From Catajapyx aquilonaris (lineage: Eukaryota), in contig JYFJ02000727.1 of NCBI GenBank assembly GCA_000934665.2, forward strand, positions 62,001-112,047: DNA of 50,047 bases, in the 5' to 3' direction. The position numbers and the translations under genes are program-made. Positions 16,693 through 50,047 of this stretch are shown piece by piece (the first letter of the stretch is position 1; every line of letters begins with the position of its first letter). The notes beneath the pieces are model-generated. The model had not been told where the DNA came from. It did not search any database and saw only the letters and a program-made list of their open reading frames with translations.

Positions 16693-17265
16693 TCAACTGG
16701 ACACGTAGGCGGCGAATGGCTCCAGTTTCTGGACGGCCGTCCGCGGATCCAGGAAGAAGTTGAAGCTCCTGAGGGAATCCTTGCAGCTGGTGTCTTTGGG
16801 CGGCGGCGATGGTCTGGGCGGCGAGGGCGGCGGAGGCGACGGCCCGGCGGACGACGGGGACGTGATGGCCTCAGAGAATGACTCGCTCAGCACAGCCGTT
16901 CCGTCCTTCTTCTCCTCGAACAGCACGCAGATGGACCCGTTCTCACCGATGCGGTACGACACCTCCTTCGGGTCGATCCACATGGTCAGCTCGCTCGGGA
17001 ACAGAGAGCGGAGGTGGCCGTTGGACAGCCCGCACAGGTCCCCCGCCTGGATGATCAGCGGGTCCATCTTGCCGTTGATACGGATGCACCGGTACCCGGA
17101 CCCCTTGAACGGACGCTCAGGAAACCAGTGGTCATGGTACCGTCGCCTCAGCAGGTCAATCAGGGTGTTTTTGAACTCCTCCAGCTGGCCATCCACTAGG
17201 AGGGTGTTGTTCAGGCGGACCAGCTGGACCAAGAAGTTGGCCGCCGAATGGATCTCCAATCGCAT
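16693..17265 (-). CDS. BTG: BTG/Tob (APRO) family antiproliferative protein, BTG1/BTG2-like, 190 aa, intronless
   Basis: Box A YHDHWFPERPFKGSGYRCIRIN, Box B FPSELTMWIDPKEVSYRIGE and a box C-like NGSICVLFEE are present. The C-terminus is short, ending SCKDSL...AAYVSS, with no long Tob-type PAM2 tail. Codons are GC3-rich, and ATG and stop are intact. Confidence 0.97.
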   Translation of the reverse strand: MRLEIHSAANFLVQLVRLNNTLLVDGQLEEFKNTLIDLLRRRYHDHWFPERPFKGSGYRCIRINGKMDPLIIQAGDLCGLSNGHLRSLFPSELTMWIDPKEVSYRIGENGSICVLFEEKKDGTAVLSESFSEAITSPSSAGPSPPPPSPPRPSPPPKDTSCKDSLRSFNFFLDPRTAVQKLEPFAAYVSS

Positions 17266-43900: not shown

Positions 43901-45917
43901 CTACAGTGCAAATCCCTCAGGTTCCTGGGTATATGAACTGACTGCACTATTGATGACCTTTGTGATACGTGAGTACGAATCCACGCGCCGGTATAGGTCT
44001 ACCAAACATGATAATGGTAACTCGATAGTCATTTTGACACACAGTCACAAATTTTCTTTGCCTAGTACGTACATGCGCGATTTGACAATAATTGAACAAT
44101 TGTTTCGGAAGTGTTCATGGTTCTACTCTTCATTCTTGAATTTTGACAATTGCATGCAATTCTACCAAATCCTTTCAAGGAGCAGATAAGCTAGGTCAAG
44201 CGGATTTTCAAAGGTGAGGTGGTCAAGTTAGGTAACCGCATCCAATGTGTCACTCGATCCTCATAAACACAACGCTGTGCGTGTTTTTCCACCTGTCTTA
44301 TCAGACCAACTACGCCTTTTTAGGGAAATGGGTATGTTTGTACCGCATGTACCGCAGAGATAGTGTCATCCCCTATCGTCTGCTATCCACTGCGTATACG
44401 TGCCAGCTATCCAACACACACACACACGCCCCTCCCTGCATCGCATATTCGCCCCATTCCCCCCCTGCTGCCTAGGCAATTCGGCCCGAATTATTCCCCC
44501 TCCAACTGTGTATGTGTCCCCCTGTAAACCTTCCCAAAATTCAATAAAGGTTGGCCTTTCCTCCCTTCCACACGTGGCCATCTCCCGACCCAATCCCGCA
44601 CTTCCAACCAGTGTTTCCCGCCCTTCCCTCCCGCCATCTATCCGTGTGCACCCGAACCCCCAATGTAACGAACGTGTGTCCCCTTTAAATACCTGACGTA
44701 TGTGCACCACATGTGTGCCACCTATGAGTTACGCAACACTCTGTACTTCACCCACACGGTGGCATCAAAGGTACAGACGACATGACGGGAAGATTGGGCC
44801 ATGCCTCACCCACACCCTCCTCCCGCCCACCCTCCCCCATCCCGTCTAGGTCATTGCACCACCTCCACCGCCCAGTGTGTCCCCTCTTTTAGGGTGCAAG
44901 TACTCACCGGCAGGTCCGGACGGATGGCCATACCGGATGATGGGTCTCCGATGCGTCCAATCGACTGGTGGCCACAGAGCACTCCGAGCGGGGTCACCAC
45001 TAAAACCGGGCACGAAAATTGGCGCGAGCACACATCAAACCGGCATCCATTTTTATCCCAAACCGTCACTTGTTCTTCTCTCCCTTGCACCAGGGACGGG
45101 TGCCAGGCGAAGGTTCCTCCCCACTCTCTTATCCCATTCTACTTCGAGCTCCTACTTTTAAAATACTTCGAGGACGCAAATAGAACTGGTGTTCTCACCA
45201 ACGTTTTAAACAAACTTTGAAAAGTGGATGATGGGCTGGAAACTGTGCAAACTTTGTCACTGGCAGATAAGCAGCGATTTCTAGATAGCTGCGAATAGTG
45301 TTAGCTGCTATTTTGCAACATTACTGTTTCTGGACGCAATAAAATGAATCAATTGACTTTTTATCGTGGAACTGGCTTATCTTGATTGTACGGCACAGAT
45401 ATGAGGGATGTGGCCATTCAAAAACGAAAACCATCCCGATGCACAGTGGGGTATTTGGGTCGAAATGTTGGCCAAAATTATTTCCGAGGGGTTTTGCTTC
45501 TAAAATGCTCTGATTCATTAATTTATGAAGTAGGCTAATAGGGGAAGTAAAGTAGTTTTTGATGACAAAAAGGCTGGCAGTATAAGCGGACCTTTACTGG
45601 TATACAGTTGTATACAGTACAGTACAAGCCGTATGAACGAATTACTCAATTTTGTAAGAAACTATTGCGGATTTCTCAGGAATCGTAGCCAATTTTTGGT
45701 TTTCATTGTCATATTCGTGATCAGAATCTTCAAATCGTTAAGAAATGACTATACTTTAGTCGGCAACGTCGGCAATAGAAGCGGACCTTTACTGGTAGAG
45801 CCATATTATCGCGAACCTTGCCCCTTGGTCAACTTTGCCAAGAAAACTTTCATCCCTGATGCACAAAGTGATATGGTGATATGGGTTGTTGGGAGGGAAT
45901 GACTAATGAGGCCGAGG

Positions 45918-46042
45918 TAAGGGGTTAACCACTCGACTGTAAAGTGTGCACTGGAATACCAAACTTCAAGAAGTACCAATGAGTACCACTGCAGGTGTAC
46001 TGTACACAGGACGACAGGAGTACCGAAGTGATTAACCCCTTG
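45918..46042. mobile_element. Candidate 125-bp MITE with 15-bp TIRs and 8-bp flanking direct repeat
   Basis: AAGGGGTTAACCACT (45919-45933) and AGTGATTAACCCCTT (46027-46041) are 14/15 inverted repeats. GGCCGAGG flanks both sides (45910-45917, 46043-46050). Confidence 0.45.
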
Positions 46043-46050
46043 GGCCGAGG

Positions 46051-46325
46051 CCTGTACACTGTTTCGACTTGGGTGGGTGGACTGACAAGTTGTGGGTTCG
46101 AACCCGGCCGAGGTCGGTGACTTTTCTCCGGGTTGTAGAAAAGTGAGAGTGCGCCTTCCTTCGGAGGGGAGGTAAAGCCGTCGGTCCCGTGTGCTTGTGG
46201 CATTGCGCGAGTGCACGTTAAAGATCCCCAGAGTTGCCAAATTTCCATGAGGAGGACCACTCCCTGGCGTCGGTGTTGAGCCTCAGCAGCAGAAATAGGA
46301 CGACGTTAAGCCCCACTGATCCATG
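46051..46325 (+). mobile_element. tRNA-derived SINE with Deu/Nin-type conserved domain
   Basis: B box GGTTCGAACCC (46095-46105). CCTTCGGAGGGGAGGTAAAGCCGTCGGTCCCG (46158-46189) and GCACGTTAAAGATCCC (46213-46228) match hallmark Deu/Nin-domain motifs as I recall them. GACGTTAAGCCCC near the 3' end (46302-46314). The 5' boundary is uncertain. Confidence 0.75.
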
Positions 46326-46967
46326 GACTGACAAGTTAACCCGCCGGGGAGGCGGGGACTGTAGAAGCGACTGCCTATATGTAACGCAGCTCTGGAATTC
46401 ACATTCCCATGGAAATGCCTTTATGAAAAAAAAAACATTTCCGTAAATTCAACGCATCCACCAATTACGCAAATTGGCCACCTCACGTGAGTTCGTATCG
46501 TTATGGGCATTCTGGGATTTTGTGGGATTTGAAACTAGACTAAATATATAATAATACAATAATAAATACACAGCATTTACAAATATTACTCCGTGTTGAA
46601 AACAAAATTTCCCACCATGCATCTACGTACATTTCTAAAGTTCTTCAGAGCAAACATATGGAATGAGGTGGGAGTGTGAAGTGGGGTTGGGGGGTCAAGG
46701 GGTCAAAAATGCAGGGGGAAAACCACGTGGCTGTGCAGTCTTTTCCTGGGCCAACTCCATCCGCATTCCTCTTTTTACACATCCAATCAGAATGTCTGTG
46801 TCGACTATACGCTATTAAGACAAGCAGGTAATCTATCACAGATAGTGACAAACTTTGGCTTATTGCAACTTATATAGGGCCCATTTTAAGACATATCGAG
46901 TTTCGAGTGTATGGAAGGGAAATTTTTACAAACACACACGCACTTCCTAAAATACTGTGTATGTACC

Positions 46968-47138
46968 TGTTGTGTCCTGTAATTATTGTAACCAGTTGCC
47001 AGACAACTGTGACTTGTTTGTCTTGTTGTAGGAACAGACCTTGAAGCTGGTCTGTTCTCGGGCTCCAGTCGTATTCTTGTAATACACCTGTTTTAGTTCA
47101 TCACCTGAGTCCTTCTTACCAGCCGTCCATACACAACA
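46968..47138 (+). repeat. 5' LTR (171 bp)
   Basis: Starts TGTTGTGT and ends ACACAACA (8-bp terminal inverted repeat). 169/171 identical to the 3' LTR. Confidence 0.98.
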
Positions 47139-47142
47139 TTTC

Positions 47143-47160
47143 TGGCGACGAGGACGGGAT
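47143..47160 (+). promoter_or_regulatory. Primer binding site, tRNA-Ser(GCU)
   Basis: TGGCGACGAGGACGGGAT lies 4 nt after the 5' LTR. It is complementary (17/18) to the animal tRNA-Ser(GCU) 3' end ...AUCCCAUCCUCGUCGCCA as I recall it. Confidence 0.85.
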
Positions 47161-47258
47161 CCATGACGGGATCTGACGGCAACGTGTGGGTAAGAAGGTT
47201 CTAGTTTTCCACAACGTGGAAAGAATTTTCACCAAGAGGTTAGTGTTTGTTGGTAACC

Positions 47259-49508
47259 ATGGCCCCTGGTATGGTGAAGCCCCTGGAGTCTTTCGTACCT
47301 GGAACGGCGGCGAACTGGACTCTGTACGAAGAGAGATGCCAGATTTTCTTCAGGGCAGCCAAAATAAAGGATGAACAACAGAAAGGTGACATGTTCCTGT
47401 CAATGTGTGGAGCAGATACCTATGCTTTACTCAGGTCACTCATGAGCCCTACCTCACCAATTGGAGCCAGTTACTCTACTATCGTAGAGACTCTTAGAAG
47501 GCACTACGTACCTGCCCCTTCACCTATCGTGGAACGGTTCCACTTGCATAAGAGGGACCAAAAGGTGGGGGAAGAAGTTGCTCAGTATGTTGCAGAACTT
47601 CGAAGGTTGTCGGCCAATTGTGATTATGGTGAGATGTTGGAGGAGATGCTCAGAGACAGATTTGTGTGGGGCCTGAGAGACCAGGCCACACAGGTGCGTT
47701 TGTTGGGAGAAGCCAACTTGACCTTCAACAAGGCCGTGGACATCGCCACTGCAGCAGAGGCAGCTGAGATAAATGTGAAACAATTGCGTTCGCAGTCCAC
47801 CATGGAGTCAGAGGTGCACCAGATAAGGGGAAGGCCGGATGTCCAGAAACCCGGAGTTCGGTGTTCTCGTTGCGGCTCCACTAATCACCATGGCAACACA
47901 TGTTGGGCCAAGGAGGTGAGCTGTAATCTATGTGGAAAAAATGGTCACATAGCCAAGGTCTGCAAGTCAAAGAAGGCAAGTGAGAAGCCCATGAAGAAGG
48001 CGGCAGATTATGGAAAATCTACCAGCAAGGCGGTCCAATCGTTGGAAGAGGCAATAAACACAGTCACTATTTTCAATGTGGATGCTGTGGCAAGACATCC
48101 TGCGCCAATGAAGGTGAATCTAGTGATAGCCGGGAAGTCAATAGAGATGGAAGTTGACTCCGGAGCAGCCTGCAGCGTAATAGATTATTCCTACTTTAAG
48201 AAGAAATGGCCCAATCGGGAATGTGAATTACGTCCACTAGACTTCCAGTTGCGGACGTGGTCACAACACCAGTTGGAGGTTGCTGGCTGTTGGAAGGTGG
48301 AAGTTGTTCACAAAGGCCAGCAACATGAACTCCCATTAGTAGTGGCAAAATCAGGTGGACCATGTGTGTTGGGCCGCGACTGGTTCAAACCCTTGGGAAT
48401 CAAAATAGAGGGCTCATCTACAGGGGTGGCTCCCGGGGCAACAGAAGCAGGCCCTAGAGTTAGACCAGGGGTGAGGAGAGTGGGTGGACAGCGGCCAAGA
48501 GGAAGGTTCCGTCCACACACTGTGGATGCTCAGCTCAGGCAGGAGAATGACAGTCTCAAGCTTGCACTGGCACAAAACTCAGCCATTACGAAGAAATGGG
48601 AGGTTGAGCTACAGACACTGAAGGACAACAACAGATGGCTTACTTCTGCCCTGCAGGAGTTAGCGGCCAGCTTGGAGGACTGGAAGGGACAGCTGCAGGC
48701 ACACAAGGAGAAGGGGAAGCAGAATGGAGTTGACGACGCTCAGGAGGAAGTCTCAGGTAGTCAAGTGTTGGCTCAGACAGCTCTTTCGGGCTTTTCCCCA
48801 GCGGTTACGGTCAGCCCCTCAAGCAGTCCAGAAGACCAGTCTCAGAAGTCCACTTCCGAGAAGGAGACTACACCAGAGGAAGTTTTCCCAGAGAAGATCA
48901 CATTAGGTGAGAAGAAAGCTGACAAACAGCCATTGGCGGCTGTTAATGAAGAATCATTGAATCAGCAAGATCAGAAGAATAAGAAGAAGACGAAGAAAAA
49001 GAAGACTAAGAAGAAGAATGACCTGACCGAAGTGCTGAAGGACGTGGTCTCGGAACAGATAACCATGGACGACCAAGCTGCCATAGGGGAAGGGGGGCAG
49101 GCCCGTGAGTACCAGGCGGGTGCCCTAGTGTACGCCCAGGACGAGGCAGCTGGGGGGAATTGGGCAAAAGGGAAGGTTATTTCTCCAGCAGGTCCCAGAT
49201 CCTACCTGGTGGAAGTTGCAGGAGGACAACAATGGAGACGACATGTGAACCACCTGCTCCAAAGATTGGGGAGGAAGGACGATGATACACCAGCAGTACG
49301 GGGTACATCGGATGCCATCAAGGGCCTCCTGAAGAAGTCCAGTGGGAGGACCCAGCAGTGCGAGTGCGAGCGGACCAGTTGCTACGATGACTATGAGACA
49401 GTGGCAGAATCAGAAGAGGCAGTAGAGGAGCCACACCCTGGTTTTCCAGAGCTGCGCCGGAGTGGAAGGGTCACCAGACGACCACCACCCCTACAGGACT
49501 ACGTCTAG
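47259..49508 (+). CDS. Chimeric polyprotein (749 aa from ATG): Gag capsid, 2x CCHC knuckle, aspartic protease, Homer-like coiled coil, Ser/Glu- and Lys-rich tract, integrase C-terminal domain
   Basis: ATG in ACCATGG context at 47259 (the ORF track starts at an upstream TTG). Gag motifs ERFHLHKRDQ...YVAELRRLSANCDYG...MLRDRFVWGL. Knuckles CSRCGSTNHHGNTC and CNLCGKNGHIAKVC (47862-47963). Protease MEVDSGAACS (DSG 48156-48164) and VLGRDW. IN C-terminus WAKGKVISPAGPRSYLVEV...RRHVNHL (49104-49265). Typical tail LRRSGRVTRRPPPLQDYV. Confidence 0.93.
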   Translation: MAPGMVKPLESFVPGTAANWTLYEERCQIFFRAAKIKDEQQKGDMFLSMCGADTYALLRSLMSPTSPIGASYSTIVETLRRHYVPAPSPIVERFHLHKRDQKVGEEVAQYVAELRRLSANCDYGEMLEEMLRDRFVWGLRDQATQVRLLGEANLTFNKAVDIATAAEAAEINVKQLRSQSTMESEVHQIRGRPDVQKPGVRCSRCGSTNHHGNTCWAKEVSCNLCGKNGHIAKVCKSKKASEKPMKKAADYGKSTSKAVQSLEEAINTVTIFNVDAVARHPAPMKVNLVIAGKSIEMEVDSGAACSVIDYSYFKKKWPNRECELRPLDFQLRTWSQHQLEVAGCWKVEVVHKGQQHELPLVVAKSGGPCVLGRDWFKPLGIKIEGSSTGVAPGATEAGPRVRPGVRRVGGQRPRGRFRPHTVDAQLRQENDSLKLALAQNSAITKKWEVELQTLKDNNRWLTSALQELAASLEDWKGQLQAHKEKGKQNGVDDAQEEVSGSQVLAQTALSGFSPAVTVSPSSSPEDQSQKSTSEKETTPEEVFPEKITLGEKKADKQPLAAVNEESLNQQDQKNKKKTKKKKTKKKNDLTEVLKDVVSEQITMDDQAAIGEGGQAREYQAGALVYAQDEAAGGNWAKGKVISPAGPRSYLVEVAGGQQWRRHVNHLLQRLGRKDDDTPAVRGTSDAIKGLLKKSSGRTQQCECERTSCYDDYETVAESEEAVEEPHPGFPELRRSGRVTRRPPPLQDYV
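48522..48710 (+). other. Captured host-gene fragment: Homer-family coiled coil (N-terminal part of the coiled-coil region)
   Basis: DAQLRQENDSLKLALAQNSAITKKWEVELQTLKDNNRWLTSALQELAASLEDWKGQLQAHKE aligns without gaps to the invertebrate Homer segment I recall as ...[55 protein letters not shown].AYKE. Recognised from memory, not searched. Confidence 0.85.
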
Positions 49509-49543
49509 TCAAATTGTGGAAGATGGTTCCTGACATTTGTACT

Positions 49544-49555
49544 GGGGGGAAGGAG
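49544..49555 (+). promoter_or_regulatory. Polypurine tract
   Basis: GGGGGGAAGGAG immediately precedes the 3' LTR. Confidence 0.9.
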
Positions 49556-49726
49556 TGTTGTGTCCTGTAATTATTGTAACCAGTTGCCAGACAACTGTGA
49601 CTTGTTTGTCTTGTTGTAGGAACAGACCTTGAAGCTGGTCTGTTCTCGGGCTCCAGTCGTATTCTTGTAATACACCTGTTTTAGTTCATCCCCTGAGTCC
49701 TTCTTACCAGCCGCCCATACACAACA
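49556..49726 (+). repeat. 3' LTR (171 bp)
   Basis: Identical to the 5' LTR except at 49691 (C vs A at 47103) and 49714 (C vs T at 47126). Followed by TSD GTACC. Confidence 0.98.
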
Positions 49727-50047
49727 GTACCCCTACCTTTACCATCACCCCAGCATACCCGGGCAACGCCGGGTAACCTGCTAGTACGCAATGAACTCTC
49801 TGAGACTGACACTGCTAGCAGAGGTTTCATCCGAGTGTCAGCCACCTCGCAGGTTGGTATCGCACCATTTTTATCCAAAAACATTTTTGTCCGATGACAG
49901 GACGAAGTTAGAGGTCATTTGACAATATTGAGGGAAATTGCTCAACTCGATTCAGCTGATAGCGATTTGAAATGGCCGTTATCAGCGACTAGCTATCTGA
50001 CTGGTCGCTTGTATGCTACTTCTGACCCCCATCCTTTGCCCCCCCCC

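Follow-up and report, generated by a model that had tools for sequence, protein, structure and literature searches.

A likely small family of non-autonomous Ty3/gypsy elements with a Homer coiled-coil fragment in the genome of Catajapyx aquilonaris

Host-gene capture by retroelements and the present locus

Plants (Bs1, rice, and sorghum) offer well-documented cases in which long terminal repeat (LTR) retrotransposons captured fragments of host genes, and so do vertebrate retroviruses. To our knowledge, such capture is far less documented for invertebrate Ty3/gypsy elements. Replication-defective transducing retroviruses have captured host mRNA, have usually lost internal domains, and need a helper. 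The present study describes an element at positions 46968 to 49726 of a 50,047-nucleotide stretch of Catajapyx aquilonaris DNA (NCBI GenBank assembly GCA_000934665.2, contig JYFJ02000727.1, positions 62,001 to 112,047 of the forward strand), in which a piece of Homer lies inside a Ty3/gypsy-type open frame. This whole stretch is called the window, and all positions are given in its numbering. We consider it likely that the element belongs to a small non-autonomous Ty3/gypsy family, which captured its Homer cargo via mRNA and in which the cargo then drifted neutrally.

Among known systems, the closest is the maize LTR retroelement Bs1. Bs1 is described as an LTR element without reverse transcriptase (RT) and integrase that holds three host-gene fragments in a hybrid frame; its capture is discussed via the RNA life cycle of the element, and Bs1 is reported as a new expressed chimeric gene (PMC13317346, in excerpt). 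The present element likewise appears to have no RT or integrase of its own and carries a host-gene fragment, 66 amino acids of Homer, in a hybrid open frame inside an LTR element. There are also differences. Bs1 is a plant element with three identified genes, whereas the present host is an animal and Homer alone is identified in the insert. Furthermore, the frame here runs from Gag-protease through the cargo to a retained integrase tail, and the element is known from sequence alone, unlike the expressed chimeric gene of maize.

Crocodilian endogenous retroviruses captured KIT-ligand and nectin3 mRNAs, with purifying selection on the cargo (PMC4299795, in excerpt). In common with these and with transducing retroviruses, the present element would have mRNA-derived host sequence, the loss of internal domains that is usual among them, dependence on a helper, and spread to several copies. 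In contrast to these whole-frame captures, it holds a 66-residue fragment without the EVH1 domain and with no sign of constraint, and its parent would be a Ty3/gypsy retrotransposon, not a vertebrate retrovirus. TR-GAG, a terminal-repeat element coding for a GAG frame only and without enzymes (PMC13570524, in excerpt), was the comparison chosen in an initial annotation of the locus, which was made from the sequence by a model. The comparison holds for the semi-autonomous manner: plant TR-GAG and GAG/PROT-only elements are non-autonomous, have no RT or integrase, and keep gag (and protease in some families), and the present element appears to be alike in this. It fails for the protease, the integrase tail, the host-derived sequence, and the animal host, which place the element outside TR-GAG as defined in that excerpt, and Bs1 and the transducing retroviruses are closer. 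Drosophila TART-A is also a retroelement with a piece of a host gene, having captured an nxf2 fragment, and piRNA (PIWI-interacting RNA) action against the host gene has been proposed for it (PMC7785250, in excerpt). By that account TART-A is a non-LTR element, whereas the present one has LTRs, and no piRNA link is known for Homer. In open-access text, a search listed no article that describes a piece of Homer within a retroelement.

The chimeric frame and the source of its Homer segment

The window copy contains a single open reading frame (ORF) of 749 codons (Table 1), free of stops and frameshifts just as the initial annotation had it, and both ends of this frame resemble a Ty3/gypsy gag-pol. 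In BLASTP, residues 9-385 matched a gag-pol protein of 1304 amino acids (P0002) with 38% identity (E 6e-77), and residues 614-749 matched the final 126 residues of the same protein (1179-1304; E 5e-9); the two proteins share the C-terminal end DYV. In tblastn, gag-pol relatives placed an integrase C-terminus at 49098-49313 of the element (E 1e-8). The last 136 codons are thus integrase C-terminus and tail, and the description of the element as a parasite with Gag and protease only has to be given up. Pfam matches to Retrotrans_gag, zf-CCHC, and RVP were weak and under the curated cut-offs. A PDB sequence search with the whole ORF and with residues 385-619 returned nucleocapsid zinc-knuckle chains and chance coiled coils, and there was no Homer chain among its matches; solved Homer coiled-coil structures presumably cover a more C-terminal part of that protein.

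When two full gag-pol relatives were compared with the element by tblastn, no RT, RNase H, or integrase core was seen in any of the six frames, which argues that the element is a non-autonomous derivative of a Ty3/gypsy LTR retrotransposon, in agreement with the initial annotation. The replaced part of Pol, as measured in a gag-pol relative, comes to ~775 amino acids. A word-index search among proteins of 411-1311 amino acids gave three matches, two Trichuris suis gag-pols and one WH1-domain protein, and no second chimeric protein. The Trichuris suis gag-pols, of which P0002 is the better match, are of the Ty3/gypsy type and carry Pfam RVT_1, RT_RNaseH, Integrase_H2C2, and rve. No relatives were confirmed in metagenome contigs or viral contigs.

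Where the enzymes would be expected lies a foreign in-frame insert. It is ~660-680 nt long; by the contig ends, the sequence shared with other copies stops at ~48420 and resumes at ~49080. Over the insert the open frame has 0 stop codons, against 7-13 in each of the five other frames. A part of the insert is Homer-like: BLASTP gave E 4e-20 and 61% identity over 66 amino acids, the match being a protein whose cluster includes 'homer protein homolog 1' of Tetranychus urticae. A phmmer search with residues 386-613 against 1.84 billion representatives yielded 286 matches at E<=1e-3 and none at E<=1e-30. The top-scoring stretch lay within insert residues 4-125 (ORF residues 389-510) in 144 of the 150 matches listed, and the remaining 6 begin within these residues and reach residue 215 at most. 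A WH1 domain was found in 9 of the 12 matches scanned, and the sources of clusters named as Homer include mite, mayfly, spiders, amphioxus, bryozoan, and mussel. Residues 487-613 and 386-408 had no match in the same search, and past ORF residue ~486 the longer Homer alignments fade to compositional similarity only.

The element protein is, nevertheless, not a Homer protein. It gave no WH1 match in a Pfam scan, whereas real Homers match WH1 at E 1e-16 to 1e-34; the N-terminal EVH1/WH1 domain is missing, and the coiled coil is partial, ending at about residue 486. AlphaFold, run on the single sequence of residues 386-749, predicted one long helix over 419-488 (pLDDT 93-97 over 426-485), and the model outside this Homer helix, including the strands of the integrase tail, was of low confidence. 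Rfam gave a single miRNA-like match below threshold, mir-1910 (23 bits, gathering score 70, E 0.15), which was taken as chance. Around the (AGA)n-like tract of the insert, contig depth is raised (bin 48924-49065), as is expected of a simple repeat.

The form in which Homer was captured can be approached through an intron. Among the 150 phmmer matches listed, about 70 were short proteins that align only from insert residue 50-59 onward. All 12 of the short Homer ORFs that were aligned (together with three longer fragments) open with 1-8 unrelated residues just before SSANAKKWE, and in P0042, which is one of the longer fragments, 16 unrelated residues stand in frame between LALAQ and SSTNAKKWE, as in a read-through. 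These junk-residue starts in genomic ORF calls would be the signature of a conserved Homer intron. The element reads LALAQNSAITKKWE unbroken across 48575|48576, the conserved intron position, and owing to this continuity the fragment was probably copied from a spliced mRNA. Template switching between co-packaged RNAs has been put forward as a capture mechanism (PMC13317346, in excerpt).

The captured piece has moved far from its source. Over 66 aligned residues, its identity to nine Homers (from arthropods, a chordate, a bryozoan, and a mollusc) is 59-71%, and these Homers share 74-94% among themselves. Specifically, seven WH1-bearing Homers agree fully in 43 columns, and the cargo departs from them in 10 of these. 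A spider Homer is the closest (71%), followed by a fragment that is 94% identical to that Homer (70%). The changes SSANA to NSAIT, NNAR to NNRW, and STANV to LAASL, named by the initial annotation, were all seen in the alignment, and both Trp residues (W33 and W61, invariant in a 19-row alignment of Homers and cargo) are kept. The cargo thus seems more diverged from Homers than Homers of different phyla are from one another, and its description as old holds good.

Family history and rival explanations

Contigs from four sequencing runs (X1-X4) of one sample and one study were aligned over 45800-50047. The variants considered below are those with the best support (40 out of 245 substitutions, 12 out of 54 indels, and 15 out of 44 joints), and their rows mix lineages. 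Depth ratios in X2 and X4 give rough locus numbers of ~8-9 for Gag, ~3 for near-identical chimeric inserts, 1-2 for inserts with 9-10% divergence, and 4.5-6 for integrase tails. The steps in depth at ~48420 and ~49080 suggest that several Gag-protease and tail copies are without the insert; these may be autonomous relatives or other derivatives. By depth, ~3-5 of the Gag-bearing copies would not extend into the insert. Two insert lineages, ~9-10% apart and above single-locus depth, share the protease/insert junction and the Homer piece, which argues that the fusion formed once, predates the present insertion by far, and spread. The propagation of the chimera, as first proposed, is therefore likely, with an insert depth of ~3 times that of the unique flank and a second, diverged lineage across the same junction.

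The LTRs of the window copy are identical at 169 of 171 sites. This corresponds to a divergence of 1.2% (Poisson 95% range 0.14-4.2%) and an age of ~0.6-6 million years if rates between 1e-9 and 1e-8 per site per year are assumed. The insertion, which the initial annotation called young, is thus young only relative to its cargo.

Our reading of these data is a single origin. The part for RT, RNase H, and the integrase core would have been swapped for ~660-680 nt of foreign sequence, by chance in frame, and ~200 nt of this insert would derive from the part of the host Homer gene that encodes its first coiled-coil segment. The capture would most likely have started from a spliced mRNA, with the reverse transcriptase switching templates between co-packaged RNAs. 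The element may still be able to make Gag (capsid and nucleocapsid) and protease, and its LTR ends, primer-binding site (PBS), and polypurine tract (PPT) are kept. RT, RNase H, and integrase would be borrowed from an autonomous relative, with mobilisation in trans. After the fusion, the element would have transposed at least a few times, and the window copy would have landed in a very high-copy repeat resembling a short interspersed element (SINE), where it duplicated 5 bp of its target. The cargo would then have drifted neutrally; sister copies are frameshifted, and the listed substitutions look neutral.

The initial annotation had seen here a selected, mobile Gag-protease parasite family, the fusion frame being preserved by purifying selection as the fusion protein serves the element. 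Such a reading has support in the 749 codons without a stop and in the stop-free insert, in the preservation of both Trp residues and 28 invariant columns of the 19-row alignment, in the confident prediction of the Homer piece as one long helix, in the intact Gag knuckles and protease DSGA, and in a fusion that is older than the insertion and present in several copies. The variants, however, do not bear it out. Of the frame-breaking events listed, 4 fall in the non-Gag part (at 48577, 48703-48903, 48898, and 49314; Table 1) and 0 in Gag-protease. At 48898, the window state has a depth of 0-26, about one locus or less, against 23-83 for the deleted state. Therefore, the full frame is not common to most copies and is a feature of the window copy and perhaps a few others. 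Furthermore, the 28 in-frame substitutions listed comprise 9 synonymous and 19 non-synonymous changes, where neutrality would give 6.3 : 21.7. Synonymous to non-synonymous counts are 5 : 6 in Gag-protease (crude dN/dS, the ratio of non-synonymous to synonymous change, ~0.35), 2 : 8 in the insert (~1.2), 2 : 5 in the integrase tail, and 4 : 13 (~0.95) for all non-Gag parts. A dN/dS near 1 together with frequent non-Gag frameshifts, which the initial annotation had itself named as speaking against selection, is thus what was found among the variants listed. The departures at columns that Homers of different phyla hold invariant, and the presence of more than Gag and protease, also stand against a selected Gag-protease family. 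Selection on the cargo is not supported, and we regard this explanation as improbable.

A related idea is that the Homer helix is an active module, by which the polyprotein associates with itself or takes hold of the host Homer scaffold. If so, the helix could aid particle assembly, protease activation, or competition for helper enzymes, and the open 749-codon frame would mark an active master copy with the frameshifted siblings as its dead offspring. We think this decidedly improbable.

It is also conceivable that the chimera was dead from the start and never transposed, its extra copies having arisen via segmental duplication or recombination between elements. The low copy estimates for the insert (~3 plus 1-2), flanks or target-site duplications (TSDs) of other copies that were not seen, and a locus in very repeat-rich DNA would all fit such a history. 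Against this, a clean 5-bp duplication and near-identical LTRs are found together with insert lineages that are ~10% apart, which requires at least one integration long after the fusion, and paralogous copies of the flank exist without the element (joints at 49727). A one-off dead chimera is, therefore, very unlikely. The long intact frame could instead come from an assembly artefact, or from a Gag-derived host gene domesticated in the manner of Arc or PEG10 with a Homer exon; Homer and Arc are both synaptic proteins. Independent short-read contigs, however, cross the protease/insert junction and cover the insert. Besides, complete LTRs, TSD, PBS, and PPT, several copies, and frameshifted sisters are unlike a single conserved host gene. 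Both of these origins are exceedingly improbable.

Neutral drift of a captured cargo in a small mobile family remains the reading that we prefer, and several points weigh against it. The insert of the window copy has 0 stops in 228 codons, which is unexpected after the drift implied by its Homer piece; in the ancestry of this copy, an open frame may thus have been under some selection. No crude ratio differs significantly from neutrality, and the counts are small. Since the variants listed are a part of the total, as given above, the contrast between Gag-protease and the rest may be incomplete. The copy numbers rest on contig depths in four runs of one sample, and depth is not copy number. The contigs contain no flanks or TSDs of other copies, so that retrotransposition of the siblings, as opposed to segmental duplication, would be an inference; none of the contigs listed spans the right junction with 31 nt on both of its sides; and no sequence of an autonomous partner was recovered. 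The intron position, on which the origin from spliced mRNA depends, is placed by Homers of other species.

The sampled individual may differ from the assembly at this locus. At many of the places listed in 47044-49649, every contig of the four runs differs from the window (e.g., 48417 T>C and 48424 G>T), and the four runs contain only 55-65% of the sampled element words. Private states of the window copy could have been dropped from the contigs, or the copy could be absent in the sampled individual, a hint of insertion polymorphism. No RNA runs were listed among the sequencing runs matching the element.

Element boundaries, surroundings, and significance

The coordinates of the element and its variants are collected in Table 1. 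The LTR differences, TSD, PBS, and PPT reported by the initial annotation are all present. The element has the TG...CA LTRs and short TSD of Ty3/gypsy elements and, by position and composition, a PBS-like tract and a PPT. Its 171-nt LTR pair is the sole long repeat family that a repeat search found within the 50-kb window. No tRNA genes, as candidate partners of the PBS, were found in the window; a serine tRNA is a candidate, as the tract may be similar to the complement of its 3′ end.

Table 1. Features of the element, variants of other copies, and aligned contigs, in window positions (residue numbers refer to the ORF)
Feature	Position	Strand	Contig depth	Evidence or remarks
Left target-site duplication, GTACC	46963..46967	+		Direct reading and alignment of both LTR edges
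5′ LTR	46968..47138	+		171 nt, TG...CA; repeat search; 2 mismatches to 3′ LTR
PBS-like tract	47143..47160	+		18 nt, starts with TGG, 4 nt past 5′ LTR; direct reading
Single open frame, P0001	47259..49508	+		749 codons and stop; ATG at 47259, stop at 49506-49508
Gag and aspartic protease (residues 1-385)	47259..48413	+		BLASTP to Ty3/gypsy gag-pol; weak Pfam; PDB nucleocapsid matches
Two CCHC knuckles, CX2CX4HX4C (residues 202-235)	47862-47963	+		Intact motifs; part of Gag, along with the capsid
Protease motif DSGA (residues 300-303), Asp codon	48156-48158	+		Intact motif
Foreign in-frame insert (residues 386-613, 228 amino acids), in place of RT, RNase H, and integrase core	48414..49097	+		No Pol similarity; steps in contig depth
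Homer coiled-coil fragment (residues 421-486)	48519..48716	+		BLASTP, phmmer, alignments, AlphaFold helix
(AGA)n-like tract	48973..49018	+		Period 3, 15.3 copies, encodes Lys-rich run KKKTKKKKTKKK; Tandem Repeats Finder
Integrase C-terminal domain and tail of parent element (residues 614-749)	49098..49505	+		BLASTP, tblastn
Polypurine tract GGGGGGAAGGAG	49544..49555	+		12 nt, all purine, abuts 3′ LTR; direct reading
3′ LTR	49556..49726	+		171 nt, TG...CA; repeat search and LTR alignment
Right target-site duplication, GTACC	49727..49731	+		Direct reading and LTR-edge alignment; joints of paralogous repeats at 49727
1-nt deletion in Homer piece	48577		21-31 (changed state)	One contig per run; stop after 13 codons (this and the following stop distances computed on the window sequence)
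199-nt skip	48703-48903		24-44 (changed state)	Immediate stop
1-nt deletion	48898		23.4/49.8, 61.5/78.1, 25.6/43.6, 82.7/82.7	Stop after 1 codon
Extra T	behind 49314		89-138 of 129-260 (changed state)	Stop after 24 codons
Gag contigs	within 47156-47923		110-186	1-8 differences
Protease contigs	48207-48420 (X1), 48198-48365 (X3)		125.7, 113.8	1 difference
Near-identical insert contig, crosses left junction	48404-48607		33.2 (X2)	2 differences
Near-identical insert contigs	48605/48640-48863		39-76	0-2 differences
Diverged insert contig, crosses left junction	48322-48541		29-42 (X1, X3, X4)	20/221 differences and 1 gap
Diverged insert contigs	48404-48698		16-24	27-28/~290 differences and 2 gaps
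Diverged insert contigs	48673-49084		22-26	42/407 differences and 15 gaps
Integrase-tail contigs	49080-49293		73-96	3 differences
Unique right-flank contigs	49758-50044		12.3 (X2), 18.7 (X3), 17.5 (X4)

A repeat of very high copy number makes up the flanks (46084-46935 and 49634-49917), with bin depths from thousands to 74,000 against 12-19 in the unique flank. The repeat looks SINE-like, judging from a tRNA-like T-arm motif (GGTTCGAACCC) at 46095-46105. In contigs of its paralogous copies the two flanks are joined across the element, and of the 15 joints listed 4 fall exactly at 49727, the first base past the 3′ LTR. The right boundary is thus fixed independently, and the element is shown to be an insertion. 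Elsewhere in the window, at 16696-17265 on the minus strand, there is an intron-less gene for a BTG/Tob-family protein (anti-proliferative, PF07742) of 190 amino acids. Its identity to related proteins is 55-62% over the full length and up to 70% over part of it, and its named best matches are BTG2-like proteins of termites, a cockroach, a dragonfly, and a katydid. By itself this gene marks the DNA as that of an animal, probably an arthropod; taken with the closest Homers it would point, at low confidence, to an arthropod and perhaps a chelicerate.

The present element provides a clean case of an in-frame polyprotein of Gag-protease, host fragment, and integrase tail, with an apparent origin from spliced mRNA and evidence of spread after its formation, and it shows how retroelements can shuffle exons in animals. 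For annotation it carries a risk, as gene predictors would report a 749-amino-acid protein with a Homer-like region. Apart from its unusual passenger, the element is an ordinary defective one, an animal counterpart of Bs1 and of the transducing retroviruses.

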